Shown here piece after piece: positions 1,269 through 25,237 of a stretch of 64,000 nucleotides of DNA. Position numbers and translations under genes: made by a program. The DNA comes from an uncultured Pseudomonadota bacterium (GTDB lineage Bacteria > Pseudomonadota > Alphaproteobacteria > RF32 > CAG-239). Every line of letters begins with the position of its first letter. The stretch's first letter is position 1. The DNA lies in contig CADAAN010000003.1 in NCBI GenBank assembly GCA_902785935.1, forward strand, positions 33,035 to 97,034, read 5' to 3'. The notes under the pieces were generated by a model. That model was not told the origin of the DNA, did not search any database, and saw only the letters and a program-made list of their open reading frames with translations.

Positions 1269-2201
1269 TCAAGCTTTAAGTATTTTCATATATTCCAAAT
1301 ATTTAAAAATACCGCAGGAAAAGGGCGAAAGCATGTTTTTATCCGCCAAATACCAAAGTTCTTTTTTAAAAGCCTGCGTCATTAAAGGCCGCACATCGTC
1401 CGGCGCTTTTTTGAGCCGCCTTAGTTGCGTACGAAGCAATTTCGGAAACAAATACTTGCGAATAACTTTCAAATCAGGCGTATTTTGATAAACGCCATAG
1501 GTGTATTTGACCACCTCAAAATAATCTTCAATTTGCTTGGCTGATGATTTTTGGTTTGAAATCGATGCCGGATTGATGGTATAAAAATAAAGCTTTTCCT
1601 GCATAATCGCCGTTTTCGGGTGCTTTTGCAAAACCGCAAACGTGTGCGGGCAATCTTCAAAATGAATACCTTTGATAAACGAAATATTTTCAACAATCGC
1701 ACGCTTATAAAGCTTTGTCCATACATTAAACGAAATGCGATATGCCCCCGTTTTAAAAGCATAGTCAAGCGGATTTTTGCTTATTTTTGCTTTAACTTTT
1801 GTGGCATCAATAACCGTCGGATGATAAGATATACCATCTGATTTTTGATAATCAAAACACACCATATCAACATCATCACGTGATGCTATCATCAAACAAA
1901 GCTCAAATGCCTGCGGATGCAAGGCATCATCAGAATCAAAAAAATAAACCCATTCGCCGCAAGCTTCTTTAAGTCCGACATTTCTTGCCATCGAAAGGCC
2001 TTGGTTTTCTTGGCTGATTATTTTGATGCGTGCATCTTTTGCACCATATTCTTCCAAAATTTTCAAACTGTTATCGAAAGAGCCGTCATTAACGCAAATC
2101 AGCTCAAAATCTTCAAATGTTTGGCTCAAAACTGATTTTAACGAACGTTTGAGGTATTTTTCAACATTATAAATCGGCATAACAACGGAAATTTTCGGCA
2201 T
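1269..2201 (-). CDS. Family 2 glycosyltransferase
   Basis: MPKISVVMPIYNVEKYLKRSLKSVLSQT...NDGS; 310 aa. Confidence 0.8.
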   Translation of the reverse strand: MPKISVVMPIYNVEKYLKRSLKSVLSQTFEDFELICVNDGSFDNSLKILEEYGAKDARIKIISQENQGLSMARNVGLKEACGEWVYFFDSDDALHPQAFELCLMIASRDDVDMVCFDYQKSDGISYHPTVIDATKVKAKISKNPLDYAFKTGAYRISFNVWTKLYKRAIVENISFIKGIHFEDCPHTFAVLQKHPKTAIMQEKLYFYTINPASISNQKSSAKQIEDYFEVVKYTYGVYQNTPDLKVIRKYLFPKLLRTQLRRLKKAPDDVRPLMTQAFKKELWYLADKNMLSPFSCGIFKYLEYMKILKA

Positions 2202-2825
2202 TCTATCTCTCCTGAAAGGTACACTCTAAATCAAGTATACAAAAAATTTTTTTCAAATGCCACAACAATTTTGACGATATCAAAAAAGAGAGGACATATA
2301 CACTCCTCTCTTTTTTCCCTTTTATTATGACCCATGTCATAATTCACCTCAAAAAAGGGACCTCTTTTGTCTGACATCAAAGATAAAAACCTTTTTCATT
2401 CGCATTTTTATCACCATCAGACACCTTGGATATATGCCTCATTTGGTATTTATCAAGATACATAAAACCAAAGTATATGTCCCGCTTGGTTTTGGCTTAA
2501 AAAAATTTGTTTACAATTTTAAATTTTTATGATACAGTCAATTCCAGATATTAAAGCTGGGGCTTTTTTATCAAGTGCTCAAAAAGGGCACGGGGCTTAC
2601 AACAGCCTTGATGATACGCAGTGAAGATAACACTGTTTTTGTGGTGTTGTTTTTTTTATTTTAAACAACGTTTATCCCGAAAAAGAGTCGGGGTACTGAT
2701 AATGAATGTACAAGGCATTATCCTAAAGATTATCGGAATCATTTCGTATCATATGATTGTTGTATACCCCGTCGCTCCTGAAAGACGCGACTTTTTTAAT
2801 TTTTAATAAAACCAGGAGAAACTTT

Positions 2826-5506: not shown

Positions 5507-6329
5507 AATGCTGAACTTACAAAAAATATCCGTTGTCACGATTATCAACCCCGGCACACGCTTTTACGTTACCGCGGTAAAATCCTTTATGTATCAAACT
5601 TATAAAAATGCTGAATGGATTGTCATCGATAACAGCGGAAAAAATTTGATTAGTGCAAAATTTGCAAAATATGAACAAAAAGACGAGCGTATCAAATTTT
5701 TTGAAAATCCCATGGTTTTAAGTCACGATGAGGTTCTTAAACAAGCGTTTGATTTAGCTCAAGGATCATATATCGCATTTTTGGATCCTCAAGATTATTG
5801 GATTAATGATAAACTATCACGCCAAATCGGTTTTATGATGCGATTTGGTGCACCCTTGTCACATACATCGTATGCTTTCGGCGATGACAAATGTCACTTG
5901 CTCAACATCGGGTGTTATCACATTTCAGGCGATTTTAATCTGCTCAATTATAAAACAAAAAATCCTATTTGCATATCAACATTGATGCTCAACAAAGAGC
6001 GATCTCTTATTGATTTTGAAAAATATGAAGAAAGTGAAAATTCCGATTTAATGACATTTTTCTTAAAAAACGGCCTTATATCTGCCGGTTTGACAGACGT
6101 TATGACTTTATGTCGGCCTGTTTTTGATAAAAAAACTCAATCCAAAATCGATGGCCTTATTCGTGACCTTTTGCTTGCAAACCCCAATGATAAAACAACC
6201 GCTTTGCGCGTTGTTGAACACCATGCCTACAATGCCAAAAATGTTGATGGCTTAAAGCTTGACCCGAGTGTATGTATCGGTCACGAGGTTGTCACAAGTA
6301 TGAACAAATTACGCAATTTTAAGATATAA
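5507..6329 (+). CDS. Divergent glycosyltransferase-2-like protein
   Basis: ISVVTIINPGTRFYVTAVKSFMYQTYKNAEWIVIDNSG resembles a GT2 N-terminus. The start was chosen at the ATG after the fabD overlap. Confidence 0.4.
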
Positions 6330-9108: not shown

Positions 9109-9435
9109 TTTTTATTTCCCTGTAAATAAGATTAAAACAAAAAACCACCTCAAAAAGGCGGTCAGGGCGTTCAACAATCACACACTACAATGACTCTCAT
9201 GACCTTTAGGAAAAACCCTTGTACATTCGTCACAAGCACCCCGAACCATTTCTGTCGGGGATATAATTATTTTTGGCAGATATCCAACTGCCAGTAGCGT
9301 AAAGGTCGTTGAAAACCCCGCACCCTTTTCGGGCACTTGATAAAAAAACAAAAATTTTTCTACCCAATCTTATTATCATAAAAAAACAATCTCTTTGTCA
9401 AGAAAAATTTAGCCTCACCTCAATAAAAAAGCAAA

Positions 9436-9896: not shown

Positions 9897-12800
9897 CTAT
9901 TTAAAGCGCTTGACAAGCTTGTTGTTGAAGTAGATGGTGCAAATGCCATCTTTGACTTCAATCTTGTATCCATTGACCTTGGAATTCTGTTCCGATTTGG
10001 ACCAGCCCCAAGTGTTCATGGATTTCTCCGTCAGGGAACGAACATTAGTACCATTGTCCTTATAAAGAACCTGGTTGCTCTTATCCTCAACGGTAGCAAG
10101 CTGCCAATTACCGCTCTTGTCGGTGTCATAGCCTGCGACGTAGTCAGCGTCGTAGTAGCTACGCTCGACATAGTTGGCGTTCTTGATGGCGTCGTCGCTC
10201 GGAAGGGCGACATTGTCATTGGCACCGGCAAAGGGGATATAAGCACCCTTATGCTCTTTGGTGACAACGGCAAGACCCTTGATCTTATCAAGGTGACCAT
10301 CTTTGTTGATGTACTTGGAACCATTCCAAGCAGCAGCAACGGCACGGACATCAACGGACAAGATCGTGCCCGGGACGATATCCTCCACCTCAACCTCGAC
10401 CAGAATCTGGCGCTTCACAGCGTCAGAAAGGTTGGCAATAACAGTACCATCAATAGAATATACGCCGTAGAAGTTCTCCTGATAATTGGAGGCTTCATAA
10501 GCGATACCGTTGACGGTCTTGTTACCGGCGGCCACAATGGCATCGGTGCTGTTAGACATAACCATCTGACCATTGAAGGTATGGGTATAATCCCCATCCT
10601 TATAGGTGATGGTCTGATCAAAACCAAAGTCAGCGACATTCGTCTCAGACTTGGCACCATTGCTCATGGTGCTGGTGATTTGACCTTTTTTATTGCTAAC
10701 AGTCCAGTAGCTGTTCGAGCTGCTGGAAGTGCTGCCGTTACGCTCACCGTTGTAGACGGTAGCAAACAGATTATTTGCAGCATACACATCGGTGCCTGCC
10801 TGAGCCGTCAGGAAATAGGCGGGGGTGAAGGGGTCCCTACGAACCTGAACCTTCACATCGTCGGTCACGTCATAGACGTACACAACGGCCTGCCCATTTT
10901 CTACCTTAGGCTCATGCGTGCGCACGGTCTCCGGGGTATAGGTACCAACCATGTTGCCCTCGATGGTGTAGGTGGTCGGGTTGCCAACGGCGGCCTTGGT
11001 CTGCACGCCATCGTCGGTGGAGAGGGTCACCTCGACCTGAGGGGTCAGGGTGACGTTGTTACCGGCAACGGCAGAAGCAACCATATCGACAGCCTTTACT
11101 GCATCGACGGAAGTCGTTGCAAGCGTTACGCCATCAATGCTGACCACTTCGTCCTTCTCTTCAAGACGCAGATATGCGGGTTTGCCTGCAACGTAACCGC
11201 GGAAGTTACGAGCTGTGACCTCATAGGTCTTGCCGTTTTCCTCGACGGTTTTTTTCGGCTCGTTGGCGGTTTCGCCAAAAGATGCCCAGGTGAAGTTGGC
11301 GTTCAGGCCTTCCTTGGTTGCCACGCCAAAGGTGGGCGTCACGGTCAGGGTGGCCGTGATGATCTTTTCCTGAGTATAAGTCTGCTCGGAACCGGCTTTT
11401 TTGACGCCGTTCACGTATTCAGCCTTTTTCACAGTATTCAGACCAGTGCCAACCAGGGTATTCCCGTTCACGTTTGCCGTGAAGGAATAGTCCTTGCTCT
11501 CAACCTTCGTCTCCACGGTGTCGTCGTGCTTGACGAGCACGTCGTAAGCCGTGGAGGCATCCTTCGTCACCTTCTTACCTTCACAGGCAAGAGTGGCGCG
11601 CGTGCTGTTCTTGTAAGCATACGCGTCATAGGTGACATTATTGACGCTCTTGGTGCCATGGGCGGTGGCGGCGACTTTGCCTTCCAGCTCCTCAAAGGAG
11701 ATGCTACACTTGACAGTTACGCTTGCACCATTGTAAGAAAGAGTGGTCTCCTTCTTATTCAGGGTCCAATCGTAAATGTTCTGGGTGCTTTCCTTCTTGT
11801 TGGAGAGGGTGTTCCGATAAGTATTGCCGGAAACACCATTGCTGGTGGTGGCAAAATCGGAAGCACTTGAGGCAATCAGGTCGCTGTGCTCGCGGCCGGC
11901 ATAGCTGTACACAAACTCGTCGTCCAAGGTCTTGGCCAAATACTCCGGCTTAAGGTTGGATTTCATGTAGAAGTCCACCTTTACATCAAAACCATTTTCC
12001 TTAGCGGTAATGGTCTTGACCTGGCGGGTATTCTCGAACACTTCCTCGACCTTTACCCGAATCTCACGACTAGAGGTGGCGGAAAGGTTGATGCTGGCGG
12101 TTTCATTTTTCCAAGTAGCGGTGTATACGGGAGCAATGCTTGCAACGTAGTCGCTCACATTGTAGTATACGCCGTTAATGGTCTGAAGACCTTTTGCAGT
12201 GATGTTCTGCTGAACACCATCGCAAACCAGCTTGCAGATAACAGTTTCGGTGCAATCCTTGTAGCTGTAGGTGATGCTTTCATCACCATACAGGCTAAAG
12301 GTGCTCACGAAGCCTTCGCCCTCATGTCCATTACTGGCAGAGGCATTGAAAGTCATGTTACCTGTTCCTTCAACCTTGGTGCCGGTGGTCTTGTAACCAT
12401 CGGTGGAAGCCAGTACATAGCCATAATTCTGACCCTGTGCAGTAGCCGTTCTTACGAAAGGCTTGCGATCCACTTCGATGATGCCGGAGAGGCTCCATTC
12501 CTCGCGGGTGACAAAAGCTCCCTTGATGGTCTGGTTTTCCTCAGACAGCTCAACCACCATCCAACGACGAATGAATTTGTCCTCAGGATCCGGGGCAACA
12601 AAGAACTTGAGGCTCAGGGTGTCCCTCACCTCAAACTTCTTGCTGGCCTGAGCCTCTTTGCCGGCCTTTACAAAATCGTTAACCACATTTGCCACCAGAG
12701 TATGGATGGCGATGTAGTTGTTGGTTTTGTAGTAACCGCCGTTGTCGGCGGCTACATTGGCCTTCACCAGCGTGTCTTTCACGCTGTGGCTCCAAGCAAC

Positions 12801-13346
12801 ATCCGGGAAGTCCTTTGCCAGGGAATCCTTGGCAAAGTGGGCGTCAGAAGAGCTGTAGGTCAGCTCAAAGTCAGCACCATATTTCCCATTCGAAAGCTTG
12901 GAAGCAAGAGCGCGGACACTCTGCGTTCCATACCAGTCACCGGAGTTCCAGGTGTTGGAAGCTTCCTTAACCTCGCTCTCGGCGTACTTGACACCGTCGA
13001 GCTCGGCCTCAGAAGAAACTTCCTTCTCCACTTTGGCACCACCCTTGACCTCGATGGGTCTGGTCATGGAAGAACCGTACAGGTCTTTTTCACCCGCGGT
13101 CTTCCATGTGTTAGTGGACTTGTACTCGTAGTTCACTACGAGGTCAATCCACTCCCATCCGTAGTGGTTTGTCTTTAGCAGGGTGTCGGTCTGGGGCTTC
13201 GGCTGTTCCGGAGCCTTACCAGGAACATAGCCATAAGCAGAGGTGTTATCCCCTGCCTCAGTCTTAGTCTCCAATTCCATTTTGTTGCAAGCAACCATCG
13301 CGGCCATCATCCCGATAGCGGCGATCACTTTAAAACTTTTTTTCAT
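9897..13346 (-). CDS. Large (1149 aa) predicted surface lipoprotein or adhesin-like protein. Thr/Val/Gly/Asn/Tyr-rich and beta-rich. Compositionally atypical (G+C-rich) relative to the surrounding genome.
   Basis: MKKSFKVIAAIGMMAAMVAC is a signal peptide with a lipobox-like Cys. It is a single uninterrupted ORF. The long antisense ORFs in the six-frame track are artefacts of the high G+C. Confidence 0.7.
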   Translation of the reverse strand: MKKSFKVIAAIGMMAAMVACNKMELETKTEAGDNTSAYGYVPGKAPEQPKPQTDTLLKTNHYGWEWIDLVVNYEYKSTNTWKTAGEKDLYGSSMTRPIEVKGGAKVEKEVSSEAELDGVKYAESEVKEASNTWNSGDWYGTQSVRALASKLSNGKYGADFELTYSSSDAHFAKDSLAKDFPDVAWSHSVKDTLVKANVAADNGGYYKTNNYIAIHTLVANVVNDFVKAGKEAQASKKFEVRDTLSLKFFVAPDPEDKFIRRWMVVELSEENQTIKGAFVTREEWSLSGIIEVDRKPFVRTATAQGQNYGYVLASTDGYKTTGTKVEGTGNMTFNASASNGHEGEGFVSTFSLYGDESITYSYKDCTETVICKLVCDGVQQNITAKGLQTINGVYYNVSDYVASIAPVYTATWKNETASINLSATSSREIRVKVEEVFENTRQVKTITAKENGFDVKVDFYMKSNLKPEYLAKTLDDEFVYSYAGREHSDLIASSASDFATTSNGVSGNTYRNTLSNKKESTQNIYDWTLNKKETTLSYNGASVTVKCSISFEELEGKVAATAHGTKSVNNVTYDAYAYKNSTRATLACEGKKVTKDASTAYDVLVKHDDTVETKVESKDYSFTANVNGNTLVGTGLNTVKKAEYVNGVKKAGSEQTYTQEKIITATLTVTPTFGVATKEGLNANFTWASFGETANEPKKTVEENGKTYEVTARNFRGYVAGKPAYLRLEEKDEVVSIDGVTLATTSVDAVKAVDMVASAVAGNNVTLTPQVEVTLSTDDGVQTKAAVGNPTTYTIEGNMVGTYTPETVRTHEPKVENGQAVVYVYDVTDDVKVQVRRDPFTPAYFLTAQAGTDVYAANNLFATVYNGERNGSTSSSSNSYWTVSNKKGQITSTMSNGAKSETNVADFGFDQTITYKDGDYTHTFNGQMVMSNSTDAIVAAGNKTVNGIAYEASNYQENFYGVYSIDGTVIANLSDAVKRQILVEVEVEDIVPGTILSVDVRAVAAAWNGSKYINKDGHLDKIKGLAVVTKEHKGAYIPFAGANDNVALPSDDAIKNANYVERSYYDADYVAGYDTDKSGNWQLATVEDKSNQVLYKDNGTNVRSLTEKSMNTWGWSKSEQNSKVNGYKIEVKDGICTIYFNNKLVKRFK

Positions 13347-13687
13347 AACGCGTTATTGTTTTTGTTTTACTTACTTATTATGACATCCAAACACAACCAT
13401 AGGGGCGCTTGGATGGAAAAGTCACATTATGATTAGGCACACCTTAAGAAACATGAAAAATTTTTCCATCTTTTTCATTTAATTCACATAAGCTTAGACC
13501 TAATCTCTATAATTCAGTCTTTAACATAGCACAATTTGAATCAAAAAACAAGCAAAAAAATGCACTTTTTTGATTTTTTTGTTTATTTTTTGTACAAAAT
13601 ACCGAAAATAAGTTCTAATGCACTGAAAATACGTATTTTTTTAGAAAATCCGTCCTATTATTTCAGCATCCGGCAAAAACGCTGATT

Positions 13688-15160
13688 TTAGCCGCCGATT
13701 TGCTCAGGCAAAGCCTCTTCATTGGCAAGATTGCCGAACTGCGCATATTGTCCGTTCCAAAAAAGTTTGACCGTACCGACCGGACCGTGACGCTGTTTGC
13801 CGATAATCACTTCCGCCAAATTAGCCGTTTCACGATCGCGTTTTTGCCATTCGGCAATGCGCTGTTGCAAGTGTTCTGCCGTTTCATTTTGCTTTTGTTT
13901 GGGCTCTTCGTTGTGGATATAATAATTTTCTCTAAAGACAAACATCACGACATCGGCATCTTGCTCAATAGACCCCGACTCGCGCAAATCCGACATCAGC
14001 GGCCGCTTATCGTCACGGCTTTCAACACCGCGGTTTAACTGCGAAAGCGCAATCACCGGCACATCAAGCTCTTTTGCCAAAATTTTCAGCCCGCGTGAAA
14101 TTTCGGACAATTCCTGCACACGATTGACTTCTCCGCGTCTTGAAGGGCCTGAAATCAATTGAATATAATCAATCACAATCAGCCCCAAACCTTTTGTGCG
14201 TTTTAAGCGCCTCGCCCGGGTGCGAATCGCGTTGATGGTCAGCCCCGGCGTATCATCGATATAAAGCGGAATATTTTCAAGCTCTCTTACGGCCGCAGCG
14301 ATTCGCGTAAATTCGGCATTATTGAGCTCACCGGTGCGCATATTTTGCCCCGGCGTTTGTGTCACGGTCGATAAAATACGCGACGCCAGCTCATCCGAGC
14401 TCATTTCAAGCGAAAAAAACGCCACGCCTTTGTCTTTTTTATCAATGCTTTTTTCGCGGCTCATAAATTCTGCCACATTATAGGCAATATTGGTTGCAAG
14501 CGCCGTTTTTCCCATGGCGGGACGGCCTGCAATGATAATCAGATTTGACTTTGTCAGCCCGCCCAAGCGCCTGTCCAAGCGCTCAAGCCCCGTCGGCAAA
14601 CCCGACAATTTATCATCGCGCTGAAAAGCCTGTTCAATATAGCCGAGCGTCGATGTCAACGCTTTTGAAAAATCGATAAAATCACTTTGCGCCTGCCCCT
14701 GATCCGCAAGATGAAACAAATTTTGTTCCGCCTCTTCAATCTGGTCATTGGCCGTCAAATCAGCCGATTCGGTCATCGCATTGTTAACGATTTTATAGCC
14801 CGTATCAATCAGCTCACGGCGCAAATATTTGTCATAAATAAACTGTCCGTAATACTCAACATTTGTCATCGGTGAAGCACTGTCCGCAAGCCGAACAAGA
14901 TAATTTATTCCGCCGACATCCGCAAGCGTACCCTGCTGTTCAAAATAGTTTTTTAAGGTAATGACATCAGCGGATCTGTCGTGCATAATGATATTTGAAA
15001 TCACCTCAAAAATTTTGGCATGCACCGGATCGGCAAAATGCTTCGGCTGTAAAAATTCAGCCACTTTTTCAAAAGCCTTGTTATTGGCAAGCAAGGCCCC
15101 GAGCAAAGCTTGCTCGGCTTCGATATTTTTAGGCAATTTATCTAAATCAGGTGTTTCCAT
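13688..15160 (-). CDS. dnaB: Replicative DNA helicase
   Basis: N-terminal IEAEQALLGALL... and a RecA-like domain with GRPAMGKTA Walker A; 490 aa. Confidence 0.9.
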   Translation of the reverse strand: METPDLDKLPKNIEAEQALLGALLANNKAFEKVAEFLQPKHFADPVHAKIFEVISNIIMHDRSADVITLKNYFEQQGTLADVGGINYLVRLADSASPMTNVEYYGQFIYDKYLRRELIDTGYKIVNNAMTESADLTANDQIEEAEQNLFHLADQGQAQSDFIDFSKALTSTLGYIEQAFQRDDKLSGLPTGLERLDRRLGGLTKSNLIIIAGRPAMGKTALATNIAYNVAEFMSREKSIDKKDKGVAFFSLEMSSDELASRILSTVTQTPGQNMRTGELNNAEFTRIAAAVRELENIPLYIDDTPGLTINAIRTRARRLKRTKGLGLIVIDYIQLISGPSRRGEVNRVQELSEISRGLKILAKELDVPVIALSQLNRGVESRDDKRPLMSDLRESGSIEQDADVVMFVFRENYYIHNEEPKQKQNETAEHLQQRIAEWQKRDRETANLAEVIIGKQRHGPVGTVKLFWNGQYAQFGNLANEEALPEQIGG

Positions 15161-23214: not shown

Positions 23215-23664
23215 CTATTTTTTCTTTGCTTCTTTTTTTGTTTCTTTGAGTTCAGAAGTGCAGTGCGGGCAACGCGTTGCATTGATTGAAATTTCAGAAA
23301 AACAATACGGGCAGGTTTTTGTTGTCGGCTCTGCTTTTTCTTCAGCTTTTTCTTTGGCAATCATCTTTTCTTGCAAAGTATTGATGGCTTTGATAAGCAA
23401 AAAGACGGCAAATGCAACAATCAAAAAGCTGATCAGCGCATTGATAAATGCACCGTATCTGATAGCGACATCATCCGTTAAGGCAAATTTGAGCTCAGAA
23501 AAATCAACTTTACCCAAAAGCAATCCGATCGGCGGCATCAAAACATCTTCGACGAGCGAATTGACGATTTTGCCGAAAGCAGCACCGATGATGATACCGA
23601 CAGCCATATCGATGACATTGCCGCGCATCGCAAACTTTTTGAATTCATTAAAAAAACTTTTCAT
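23215..23664 (-). CDS. mscL: Large-conductance mechanosensitive channel with a C-terminal Cys4 zinc-ribbon extension
   Basis: [34 protein letters not shown] is an MscL signature. The tail carries CPYC...CPHC. Confidence 0.85.
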
Positions 23665-23853: not shown

Positions 23854-24399
23854 ATGGAGTTAAGTTATTATTCAGAAATCCGTCAGAAAGCAGATGCAAA
23901 AATTCCGACGGTGAACGATTTGACACCGGCAATCGTTAATCATCTTAAAAAAGCAACGGATGTCATCAAAAACGAAGGCAAAGAGGGCTTTAGGGCTTTT
24001 TACGAAGCTCATAAAAATGACTTTAATGGCTTTGCCTGGTTTGTCTATGACCACCGTGGTGTGTATGATCGTCAACGTTTTTTGTACAACTGGCAGACGC
24101 TGACCCCGTATGTTGAGGCAATTTTCAAACTTGGGCTCAAAGCCCCTCATCGTGAACGCTTTATTGAGTTGATCAATCGGTATGATTTGGTTATCTATGC
24201 CCTGGACGACAAGGATGTTGTGCGTTTTGCCCTGAGCAATTTAAACTTCTACATCGAAAGCAATATGTTTATCTCTACCGTTGAGGGGAAAAACTGCAGG
24301 CTTATCGAACAAATGTATGAAGAATTGAAAAAGTATGCCGATACGCCCTATTCGCCGCAATGGTGCCTTTATGTGGTATTGAAAAAATACCTTGACTAA
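23854..24399 (+). CDS. Hypothetical protein (181 aa)
   Basis: ORF with a TTGACA-17-GATAAAAT promoter upstream; no recognised domain. Confidence 0.45.
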   Translation: MELSYYSEIRQKADAKIPTVNDLTPAIVNHLKKATDVIKNEGKEGFRAFYEAHKNDFNGFAWFVYDHRGVYDRQRFLYNWQTLTPYVEAIFKLGLKAPHRERFIELINRYDLVIYALDDKDVVRFALSNLNFYIESNMFISTVEGKNCRLIEQMYEELKKYADTPYSPQWCLYVVLKKYLD

Positions 24400-24508
24400 A
24401 AAAACACCCCTTTATCTTTTGCGATAAAGGGGCTTGTTTTATGATATCAAAAAATAAAAATATATTTCCTTTATTGTTTTTTAAGAAAAACATTTATATA
24501 ATATTTTC

Positions 24509-24700
24509 AGCACTGAAAAGTGCGGGGCTTCTAAAAGTCTTACCATACACGGCAAAGGATATGTGCCGTAAAAATATATCCCCGATGATGGCTCGGGGAG
24601 CTTATAGCGTATGTTCAAGGATTTATCCTAAAGGTTATAAGAGTCAGCTCGTAATGATGATTGTTTTACTCTCCGACCGCTTTTTAAAGTGGTCTTTTTT
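24509..24700 (+). ncRNA. Candidate small RNA or cis-acting leader, copy 1 (predicted transcription start to terminator)
   Basis: -35 at 24474-24479, -10 at 24497-24502, hairpins gcac-tgaaaa-gtgc, cggca-N9-tgccg, ccccga-N7-tcgggg, terminator at 24675-24700. Confidence 0.35.
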
Positions 24701-24795
24701 CTTTAACCACAGTCTAAGGAGAATAAAATGATATCAAAAAATAAAAATCTGTTTCTTTTATTGTTTTTTAAGAAAAACATTTATATAATATTTTC

Positions 24796-24984
24796 AGCAC
24801 TGAAAAGTGCGGAGTTTCTAAAAGCTCTTAACTACTCGGCAAAGGATATGTGCCGTAAAAATATATCCCCGAATTTTTGGTCGGGGTGCTTTCAGCGTAT
24901 GTTCAAGGTTTTCCCAAAGGCTGAAAGGTCATTAGTAGTTATGATTTTTAGACTCTCCGACCGCTTTTTGAGTGGTCTTTTTTC
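24796..24984 (+). ncRNA. Candidate small RNA or leader, copy 2
   Basis: -35 at 24761-24766, -10 at 24784-24789. Same hairpins with loop changes (ccccga-atttttgg-tcgggg). Terminator at 24959-24984. Confidence 0.35.
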
Positions 24985-25078
24985 TTTAACCACAGTCTAA
25001 GGAGAATAAAATGACATCAAAAAATAAAAATTTGCTTCTTTTATTGTTTTTTAAGAAAAACATTTATATAATACTTTC

Positions 25079-25210
25079 AGCACTGAAAAGTGCGGGGCTT
25101 AAAACAGCCTTACCATACACGGCAAAGGATATATGCCGTAAAAATATATCCCCGATGATGGCTCGTATGATTTTTAGACTCTCCGACCGCTTTTTAAAGT
25201 GGTCTTTTTT
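25079..25210 (+). ncRNA. Candidate small RNA or leader, copy 3 (internally shortened), directly preceding the RBS of the 25238 gene
   Basis: -35 at 25044-25049, -10 at 25067-25072, terminator at 25185-25210. Confidence 0.35.
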
Positions 25211-25237
25211 CATTAATTTTAATGCGGGGAGAATAAA

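Follow-up and report, generated by a model that had tools for sequence, protein, structure and literature searches.

Positions 24441 to 25237 of the window, by which we mean the whole 64,000-nucleotide stretch of contig CADAAN010000003.1 from an uncultured alphaproteobacterium, hold three head-to-tail units of about 285 base pairs (bp) that lead into an open reading frame (ORF) of 129 amino acids. We found that these units are members of a family of structured RNAs with about 180 representatives outside the window, and that this family combines a common fold, an intrinsic terminator, a tight coupling to the ORF that follows it and a conserved complementarity that would compete with the terminator. 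Judging from sequence, we propose, with a probability of roughly 0.7, that each unit is a copy of a structured 5′ leader that gates read-through into the gene behind it by switching between two folds. We hold it to be nearly certain that the family is a conserved structured RNA, and we consider it quite probable that it acts in cis as a leader that gates read-through. That its signal is a small molecule, as in a riboswitch, is conceivable, but we would put this at somewhat less than an even chance.

Tandem Repeats Finder reported one array at 24441–25165, with a period of 283, 2.5 copies and 88% matches, and a three-way alignment of the units gave a mean column identity of 84%. Core 17- to 21-mers occur exactly three times in the window, where between 0 and 0.14 occurrences would be expected by chance. 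All units present their parts in the same order: a promoter-like site, about 190 nucleotides (nt) of structured RNA, an intrinsic terminator, an AGGAG-type ribosome binding site (RBS) and an ATG. On inspection of the sequence, TTGTTT and TATAAT separated by a 17-nt spacer are found in units 1, 2 and 3. A preliminary description of this DNA, made from its letters alone, had spoken of a near-consensus promoter, which is accurate for the −10 hexamer, a perfect TATAAT, but generous for the −35 hexamer, which agrees with TTGACA at only three of six positions; it is for this reason that the promoter scan did not list these sites. The terminators described at the same time were found in all three units by the terminator scan, each as a GACCGC/GUGGUC hairpin followed by T6, and the same scan counted 11 terminator-like sites in the scanned region against 2.4 expected. 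The RNA segments of units 1, 2 and 3 are also more stable than shuffled sequence (z = −2.4, −6.6 and −3.4, respectively).

The same RNA is found elsewhere in the window and in many other genomes. A BLASTN search with one unit, which the preliminary description had suggested as a check, retrieved a fourth copy, 73% identical, at 9136–9344, and a covariance model (R1), built from 68 members and searched with default filters, found five copies in the window, with scores of 162, 158, 156, 112 and 74 bits. The fourth copy carries compensatory changes in three of the helices described below (H1, H3 and H5), and no ORF runs through it; in the fifth, at 2567–2798, helix H4 reads CCCGA/UCGGG and the loop of H3, GAUAA, is complementary to UUAUC. 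Beyond the window, a 21-base pattern from H4 matched 98 stretches in species-representative genomes, where about one match would be expected by chance according to a rough calculation from the length of the pattern and the size of the collection. Nearly all of the carriers are metagenome-assembled genomes (MAGs) of uncultured Alphaproteobacteria from human, ruminant, rabbit and mouse gut, and several of these genomes have more than one match. Recurring names are Acetobacter sp. CAG:977, Proteobacteria bacterium CAG:495 and Azospirillum sp. UMGS63, which we take to belong to the RF32 group. With an independent pattern from the 3′ part of the element, 63 more loci came to light in metagenomes from human gut and rumen, and R1 matched 120 times in the loci fetched with the H4 pattern and 64 times in those fetched with the 3′ pattern, with scores of up to 234 bits. 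The leader measures about 200 to 250 nt across the family. Viral contigs scanned with the H4 pattern gave zero matches, and thus we see no link to phages. One match, in Fischerella (L006), had no similarity outside the pattern and was set aside as a chance match. Three records filed under other groups, L014 and L067 as "Bacteroidaceae bacterium" and L092 as "[Ruminococcus] gnavus", have the motif together with neighbouring genes that look alphaproteobacterial, and they probably reflect mis-binning or contamination.

The preliminary description could name no RNA family for the units and had recommended a covariance-model scan, which bears it out: no family was found at either the gathering or a permissive threshold. 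With Rfam 15, the window returned only one tRNA at the gathering threshold, while between 24300 and 25700 the best E-value at E ≤ 10 was 0.085, with every match far below its gathering score. A scan of 18 canonical family loci returned only tRNA, 6S and rpsB, all elsewhere in the loci, and a scan of locus L007 at E ≤ 10 gave nothing relevant. The families covered include cyclic di-GMP (c-di-GMP) I and II, T-box, cobalamin, EAR and the alphaproteobacterial small RNAs (sRNAs), none of which reached its gathering threshold. Similarly, a full-text literature search, of incomplete coverage, found no description of a structured motif of this kind in gut Alphaproteobacteria.

We tested the proposed fold, with 61 pairs in ten helices, on a plain MAFFT alignment (A4) of 68 non-redundant members, using as controls the same helices with the 3′ partners slid by one to three columns. 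Standard pairs are formed in 93.1% of the cells, against 40 to 46% in the controls. Both partners have changed at 38 of the pairs, and double-change cells number 561 against 87 to 146; none of 500 shuffles reached the observed values. From 5′ to 3′, the RNA consists of H1, H2, a core closed by the long-range helix P3, a strand that forms pseudoknot PK1, the conserved sequence ACUCUCC, the terminator and a U-tract. Within the core are H3 with the loop AGGAUAU, an optional variable hairpin (missing from the window's units), H4 (UCCCCGA...UCGGGGAGCUU) and H5 with an inner hairpin. PK1 joins a strand located 3′ of P3 to the loop of H2 and covaries at six of its six pairs, and P3, which is best formed in unit 2 (AACUACU:AGUAGUU), does so at seven of seven. 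Even among the loci retrieved by a pattern that does not include it, H4 hardly varies (61 of 64), and this set holds one compensatory variant, CCCCAA/UUGGGG. Such a conserved, structured domain with the support of covariation is what one expects of the sensor of a riboswitch.

The sequence also suggests a further pseudoknot, in which the GGAUAU loop of H3 would pair with AUAUCC, adjacent to H4 on its 5′ side. The target is nearly invariant. Few informative variants speak for this pairing, among them GAUAA/UUAUC in the window copy at 2567 and others with a short loop, in which the unpaired portion of the target drifts, and it overlaps with the two outer pairs of H4, so that we keep it tentative. 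In many members, such as L007 (2460–2480), L036 and L068, H1 is immediately preceded by one more hairpin, P0 (e.g., GCAGG...CCUGC). The window's units have none, because their −10 box lies about 7 nt ahead of H1, and where the RNA starts may thus vary among members. In addition, five loci gave weak covariance-model matches of 27 to 52 bits: L040 (3823–4030), L098 (6418–6622) and L087 (7070–7235) on the minus strand, and L054 (1309–1521) and L041 (7486–7682) on the plus strand. These share the outer platform of H1, an H2 whose loop could pair with a UUCUGAAC-type strand further downstream, AUCC and the terminator, and differ in the core, so they may represent a sister family with a shared expression platform and another sensor.

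Against this common fold, the count of three units given in the preliminary description needs one correction. The repeat itself was confirmed, but unit 3 is incomplete, as an in-frame deletion of 60 nt (junction 25165/25166) has removed the 3′ arm of H4, H5 and the 3′ strand of P3, while H1, H2, H3, the 3′ strand of PK1, CUCUCC and the terminator have been retained. Its score is 74 bits, compared with 158 to 162 bits for the complete units, and nhmmer breaks it into two pieces. Unit 3 is probably a sensor-less remnant of the leader.

The position of the element is also regular, and in its general layout the RBS and start codon follow some 25 to 30 nt after the terminator. Among 110 strong matches, 104 have at least six U in the 10 nt after the terminator stem, and 94 are followed on the same strand by an ORF of at least 60 amino acids preceded by a Shine-Dalgarno (SD) sequence, whose start codon lies at a median of 23 nt (interquartile range 18–27) past the end of the model. 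This distance leaves no room for a separate promoter, and therefore such genes should be expressed only by read-through; by its layout, the 129-amino-acid ORF of the window would likewise be transcribed only through read-through of the unit terminators. Of the two readings offered in the preliminary description, an sRNA array or a leader of the riboswitch or attenuator type, this regular coupling favours the leader.

A Pfam scan of 68 downstream proteins, 67 of them non-redundant proteins from family members and one the window's 129-amino-acid ORF, gave several recurring classes: family-2 glycosyltransferases (six), YpsA/SLOG (five), autotransporters (three), RgpF (three), outer-membrane beta-barrels (three, plus Opacity- and OmpA-like proteins), Staphylococcal-nuclease homologues (three), PilS/bundlin-type pilins (two) and XRE regulators (two). 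Single cases include WbsX, GT8, an epimerase, a DNA methylase, a PLD nuclease, Bor and a protein with Chlamydia-PMP repeats. By a crude heuristic, 35 of the 68 proteins have an N-terminus that resembles a signal peptide. Thus, the putative regulon consists of cell surface and envelope genes together with accessory genes. A natural variant stands out among these loci: in L083 (3199–3377), the leader ends right after H4 and is fused almost directly to the start of a lipoprotein gene, while L095 (4961–5194) has a complete leader upstream of the same gene. By this comparison, L083 would be a natural deletion of H5, the 3′ strand of P3, PK1 and the terminator, and its gene should be constitutive.

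The evidence for a second fold comes from partition-function folds of 68 transcripts cut before the 3′ arm of the terminator. In these folds, the 5′ arm of the terminator pairs with the 3′ arm of H1, and CUCCG pairs with GGAG+C in the 5′ part of H2; for the latter pairing, the pair probabilities add up to about 42 to 51 over the 68 sequences. The resulting antiterminator strands, GGUGCGGAG and CUCCGACC, form a helix that is collinear with PK1 and is 85.8% paired, against 45 to 63% in slid controls. With a mean duplex energy of −12.9 kcal/mol, it is as strong as the terminator stem (−12.5 kcal/mol), and it is stronger than with permuted partners (−12.4 ± 0.2, p about 0.009) or in shuffles (−9.4). 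An idea formed by eye, in which GGAG:CUCC simply replaces H2, was rejected when the counts showed that H2 itself covaries, and we therefore treat this pairing as an alternative fold and not as the ground state. In a test whose control set was imperfect, the predicted pairing of the 9-mer before the terminator was also stronger with cognate SD regions (−6.25 kcal/mol) than with control ones (−4.5 kcal/mol; p = 3e-11). The element thus presents, directly 5′ of the ORF, an expression platform with two mutually exclusive forms.

From these pairings, we propose the following switch. In fold A, the off state, H1, H2, PK1 and the terminator would form and transcription would stop, and the free CUCUCC would mask the SD of the downstream gene on any transcript that reads through. 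In fold B, the on state, the 3′ arm of H1 and GGAG would pair with CUCC and the 5′ arm of the terminator, stacking on PK1, which would block formation of the terminator and free the SD. PK1 would be common to both folds, and it could serve as a toehold for strand invasion. We presume that the multi-helix core enclosed by P3, whose loops and junctions are highly conserved, senses a ligand or factor, and the gene set is reminiscent of control by a second messenger or by the status of the envelope, which we regard as a lead and not as a result. The conserved complementarity is shown; that the leader switches at all, in which direction it regulates and what kind of signal it responds to are what we infer. 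A more ambitious version, which we favour less than its negation, is that the family is a new class of true riboswitch in which a second messenger or envelope-related metabolite coordinates a regulon of surface and accessory genes, with the terminated RNA maybe acting in trans as well. PK1 would then be the toehold for an invasion by the 5′ end that disables both the terminator and the anti-SD, an unusual platform, and a use of the terminated product in trans would explain the recurrence of arrays of two to four copies.

Several observations weigh against such a switch, including the imperfect control set of the anti-SD test. Covariation specific to the antiterminator is weak, a three-way table at the shared GGAG shows a modest association, and a good part of the antiterminator signal consists of conserved complementarity that might arise for another reason. 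The downstream genes are very heterogeneous and point to no single metabolite. As regards the array, upstream copies would add little control in cis because each unit has its own promoter-like site; a pseudo-cooperative switch accounts for this arrangement less well than would neutral duplication or a trans-acting RNA whose dosage matters. Moreover, because unit 3 has no presumed sensor, the 129-amino-acid gene may no longer be regulated by the element.

The array itself would have arisen when the module as a whole, from promoter and leader to terminator, RBS and ATG, was triplicated by unequal crossing-over in front of the 129-amino-acid gene, the gene-proximal unit 3 losing its sensor core afterwards. 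Unequal crossing-over had already been invoked in the preliminary description, and it agrees with what we found in sister strains, which have two or three units in differing order before a homologue of the 129-amino-acid ORF; this homologue lies 3′ of the array in every sister locus (L001, L002, L004, L005 and L104), and in L002, the covariance model finds three copies. In L001, a two-unit array (5776–6290, plus strand) and the gene are located between uvrB and def and not beside the hydrogenase operon, and therefore leader and gene seem to move as a module. The same contig has a diverged copy of the leader (1472–1691, plus strand, 121 bits) before an RHS-like gene of 317 amino acids. Independent arrays occur in human-gut (Hadza) MAGs, with four copies in L041 (6150–7374, minus strand, period of about 328) and three in L047 (4669–5552, plus strand), both upstream of a lipoprotein gene of 191 amino acids. 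Unequal crossing-over is thus recurrent. In the one inter-unit spacer of L041 that was inspected, there is a TTGACT-17-TAAAAT promoter and no RBS or ATG. Given that every array unit has its own TATAAT-type promoter-like site, and that this spacer has a promoter too, transcripts may start inside the arrays. As in tandem riboswitches, at least two complete units with their own terminators stand in series before one ORF.

The duplicated module spans from just after one ATG to the next, and because of this, units end in a start codon and gene callers predict "MISKNKN..." proteins. The preliminary description preferred an RNA function to these proteins, in part because indels between the copies are not multiples of 3. 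This argument fails as stated, since the indels sum to multiples of 3 (a net +3 between units 1 and 2 and the 60-nt deletion of unit 3), and it is because they preserve the frame overall that ORFs of 96, 90 and 76 amino acids are all open; nevertheless, its conclusion stands. If the three ORFs were paralogous genes of a small-protein family, they would be translationally coupled by ATGA overlaps, and ORF1 and ORF3 do overlap the next ATG in this manner. Among 5.8 billion protein clusters, however, only seven relatives were found, of which two are the window's own ORF2 and ORF3 and five come from sister arrays in rumen-type metagenomes, and there is no match in Pfam or NCBIfam. A frame free of stops over at least 90% of the element exists in only nine of 68 family members, and neither the other 59 nor the window's other two copies have a long open frame. 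Furthermore, substitutions are compensatory within the RNA helices, and the C-terminus of each ORF is encoded by the terminator hairpin. The ATG of ORF1 (24441–24443) is upstream of the unit 1 promoter, so that ORF1 is not on the transcript of that unit, while ORF2 and ORF3 (starting at 24728 and 25011) would be translated solely from read-through transcripts. We consider the small-protein reading to be effectively refuted. Nevertheless, as the layout suggests, a ribosome on ORF2 or ORF3 that crosses the RNA and terminator of the next unit could couple translation to read-through.

Other readings keep the RNA and give it a different role. The units could be an array of trans-acting sRNA genes, whose main, terminated product of about 200 nt acts elsewhere, for instance through an exposed CUCUCC that serves as anti-SD seed, or through the titration of a protein. 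Read-through into the downstream gene would then be of secondary importance, and a role in cis would be compatible with this. Each unit does have its own TATAAT about 7 nt before H1 and a strong terminator; arrays of two to four units arise independently; the promoter without RBS or ATG in the L041 spacer is consistent with gene dosage; and in fold A, the C/U-rich ACUCUCC is single-stranded just 5′ of the terminator, like many seed regions. Nonetheless, an ORF with its own SD on the same strand at so constant a distance is too regular for free-standing sRNA genes, and the conserved alternative helix competes with the terminator, so we regard this reading as unlikely, at about one chance in five. 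A miniature mobile repeat with a promoter and terminator and no specific RNA function, similar to Correia elements or miniature inverted-repeat transposable elements, would fit the five copies in 64 kb, the adjacent accessory genes (methylase, nucleases and Bor) and the frequent local amplification. However, copies in the same genome have diverged to 73% identity or less and yet keep all helices through compensatory changes, the orientation and distance to the start codon are fixed, and the element, conserved in about 100 species-level genomes, gave no matches in viral contigs, all of which makes such a repeat very improbable. Finally, the tandem RNA repeats, terminator and small protein gene superficially resemble a type III toxin-antitoxin module, with the repeats as an antitoxin array against the 129-amino-acid protein, and the array and this gene stay together in the other context of L001. 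Against this, the same RNA occurs singly before glycosyltransferases, autotransporters, pilins and other genes, the units are 283 bp long with their own promoter and terminator instead of repeats of about 36 nt in one transcript, and the 129-amino-acid protein has no PADLOC match and no Pfam match at the curated cut-off. We give this last possibility hardly any weight, and it can be considered already disfavoured. A leader that gates read-through in cis thus remains the reading we prefer.

Table 1. Coordinates of the array, its parts and the other copies of the leader in the window.
Feature	Position	Strand	Basis or remark
Upstream boundary hairpin	24407–24432	both	Bidirectional, terminator-like; closes the 181-amino-acid ORF at 23854–24399; 5′ limit of the array
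Unit 1, complete copy	24441–24727	+	Covariance-model match 24502–24701, 162 bits
Unit 1 promoter-like site	−35 24474–24479; −10 24497–24502	+	Sequence
Unit 1 RNA	about 24510 to 24700	+	TATAAT ends about 7 nt before H1
Unit 1 H1	24510–24514:24519–24523	+	Hand-mapped from A4
Unit 1 H2	24524–24528:24537–24541	+	Hand-mapped from A4
Unit 1 pseudoknot PK1	24531–24536:24663–24668	+	Hand-mapped from A4
Unit 1 H3	24550–24554:24564–24568	+	Loop GGAUAU; hand-mapped from A4
Unit 1 H4	24580–24585:24593–24598	+	Hand-mapped from A4
Unit 1 H5	24601–24608:24633–24641	+	Hand-mapped from A4
Unit 1 CUCUCC	24669–24674	+	
Unit 1 terminator	24675–24694 + T6	+	
Unit 1 RBS AGGAG	24717–24721	+	
Unit 2, complete copy	24728–25010	+	Covariance-model match 24789–24984, 158 bits; fold z −6.6
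Unit 2 promoter-like site	−35 24761–24766; −10 24784–24789	+	
Unit 2 RNA	about 24797 to 24983	+	
Unit 2 terminator	24959–24977 + T6	+	
Unit 2 RBS	25000–25004	+	
Unit 3, shortened gene-proximal copy	25011–25237	+	Covariance-model match 25072–25211, 74 bits
Unit 3 promoter-like site	−35 25044–25049; −10 25067–25072	+	
Unit 3 terminator	25185–25204 + T6	+	
Unit 3 RBS GGGGAG	25226–25231	+	
Downstream ORF, 129 amino acids	25238–25627	+	ORF list; no N-terminal signal-like segment
Fourth family copy	9136–9344	−	BLASTN, 73% identical to unit 2; covariance model 156 bits
TTGACA promoter-like site of the fourth copy	9401–9396	−	
YpsA/SLOG-like gene downstream of the fourth copy, 157 amino acids	9108–8635	−	Class taken from the MGKxCxFFGHR N-terminus; the Pfam scan (five YpsA among 68) gave no listing by member
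Fifth, diverged copy	2567–2798	+	nhmmer E = 2.8e-18; covariance model 112 bits
Type IV pilin-like gene downstream of the fifth copy	ATG 2827	+	N-terminus GRSMVEMLGMLAVIG

The proteins on either side of the array, of 129 and 181 amino acids, gave nothing above the curated cut-offs of Pfam and NCBIfam and nothing in PADLOC or PHROGs. Two other features of the window may be mentioned. At 23215–23664 (minus strand), there is an MscL homologue (Pfam E = 5e-43) with a C-terminal extension that resembles a zinc ribbon (CxxC...CxxC) and has weak DZR and UPF0547 matches. A lipoprotein-like ORF of 1149 amino acids at 9897–13346 (minus strand) lies in a stretch (10001–14000) that has a G+C content of 47 to 52%, against about 40% in the rest of the window, with long shadow ORFs on the opposite strand, and that may have been acquired horizontally.

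The carriers of this RNA, Alphaproteobacteria of the gut and rumen, are known almost solely through metagenome bins, and to our knowledge, there is no information on the regulation of their cell surface. A pseudoknotted leader that recurs before their surface genes would define both a regulon and a signal that controls what these bacteria present at their surface to the host. For RNA biology, the family would offer a well-supported orphan riboswitch candidate, with about 180 representatives, strong covariation and an explicit two-state model. In addition, the "hypothetical proteins" annotated across such arrays would be better replaced by a non-coding RNA or regulatory feature.

Among known systems, riboswitches of the terminator/antiterminator type and T-box leaders share with this family a pseudoknotted sensor-like domain, an intrinsic terminator and a helix that competes for the 5′ arm of that terminator, as well as the presence of several copies per genome and a start codon close by. 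In those systems, the competing strand lies on the 3′ side of the aptamer; our family takes it from the very 5′ end of the RNA (H1's 3′ arm and GGAG). Our family also has no T-box or specifier features and no Rfam match, and precedes surface and accessory genes instead of metabolic or aminoacyl-tRNA genes. Surface-polysaccharide and virulence operons are also controlled by processive antitermination, for instance by the EAR RNA of Bacillales, RfaH with ops, LoaP and UpxY, and these systems act on distal terminators or via a NusG paralogue that binds a short signal in DNA or RNA. They resemble our family in placing a leader before polysaccharide, pilus, adhesin and horizontally acquired surface genes, but here the terminator is built into the element, no protein was found to go with it, and the Rfam scans gave no EAR match. 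A similar gene set is controlled by the c-di-GMP riboswitch classes, which act on pilin, adhesin and exopolysaccharide genes and in this respect resemble the genes downstream of our leader, although the fold of this family matches neither c-di-GMP-I nor c-di-GMP-II.

With regard to the arrays, tandem sRNA genes such as NsiR1 in Nostoc, LhrC1-5 in Listeria and CcsR1-4 in Rhodobacter have repeated units with a promoter and terminator of their own and, close to the 3′ end, a single-stranded stretch rich in C and U. Our element, in contrast, is usually single and has a fixed orientation right before a start codon, and its fold is much larger and more intricate than that of typical base-pairing sRNAs. 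ToxI antitoxin arrays are alike in their tandem RNA repeats, terminator and small protein gene, but they differ in the size and organisation of the repeats, while our RNA occurs before unrelated genes and without a match to a toxin family. Tandem riboswitches offer another parallel. Doublets and triplets in which each riboswitch has its own terminator have been documented and give steeper responses (PMC9481103; PMC4759541), and in Bacillus thuringiensis, the triple-tandem c-di-GMP-I riboswitch Bc3-5 lies within a single 5′ untranslated region (PMC4759541). Both Bc3-5 and the tandem riboswitches surveyed in PMC9481103 are similar to our arrays in having two to four serial leader units with their own terminators before one ORF; unlike Bc3-5, our units each have their own promoter-like site, and the proximal unit is shortened. 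The element belongs to no catalogued class and is most likely a structured cis-regulatory leader RNA, similar in kind to a terminator/antiterminator riboswitch or attenuator.

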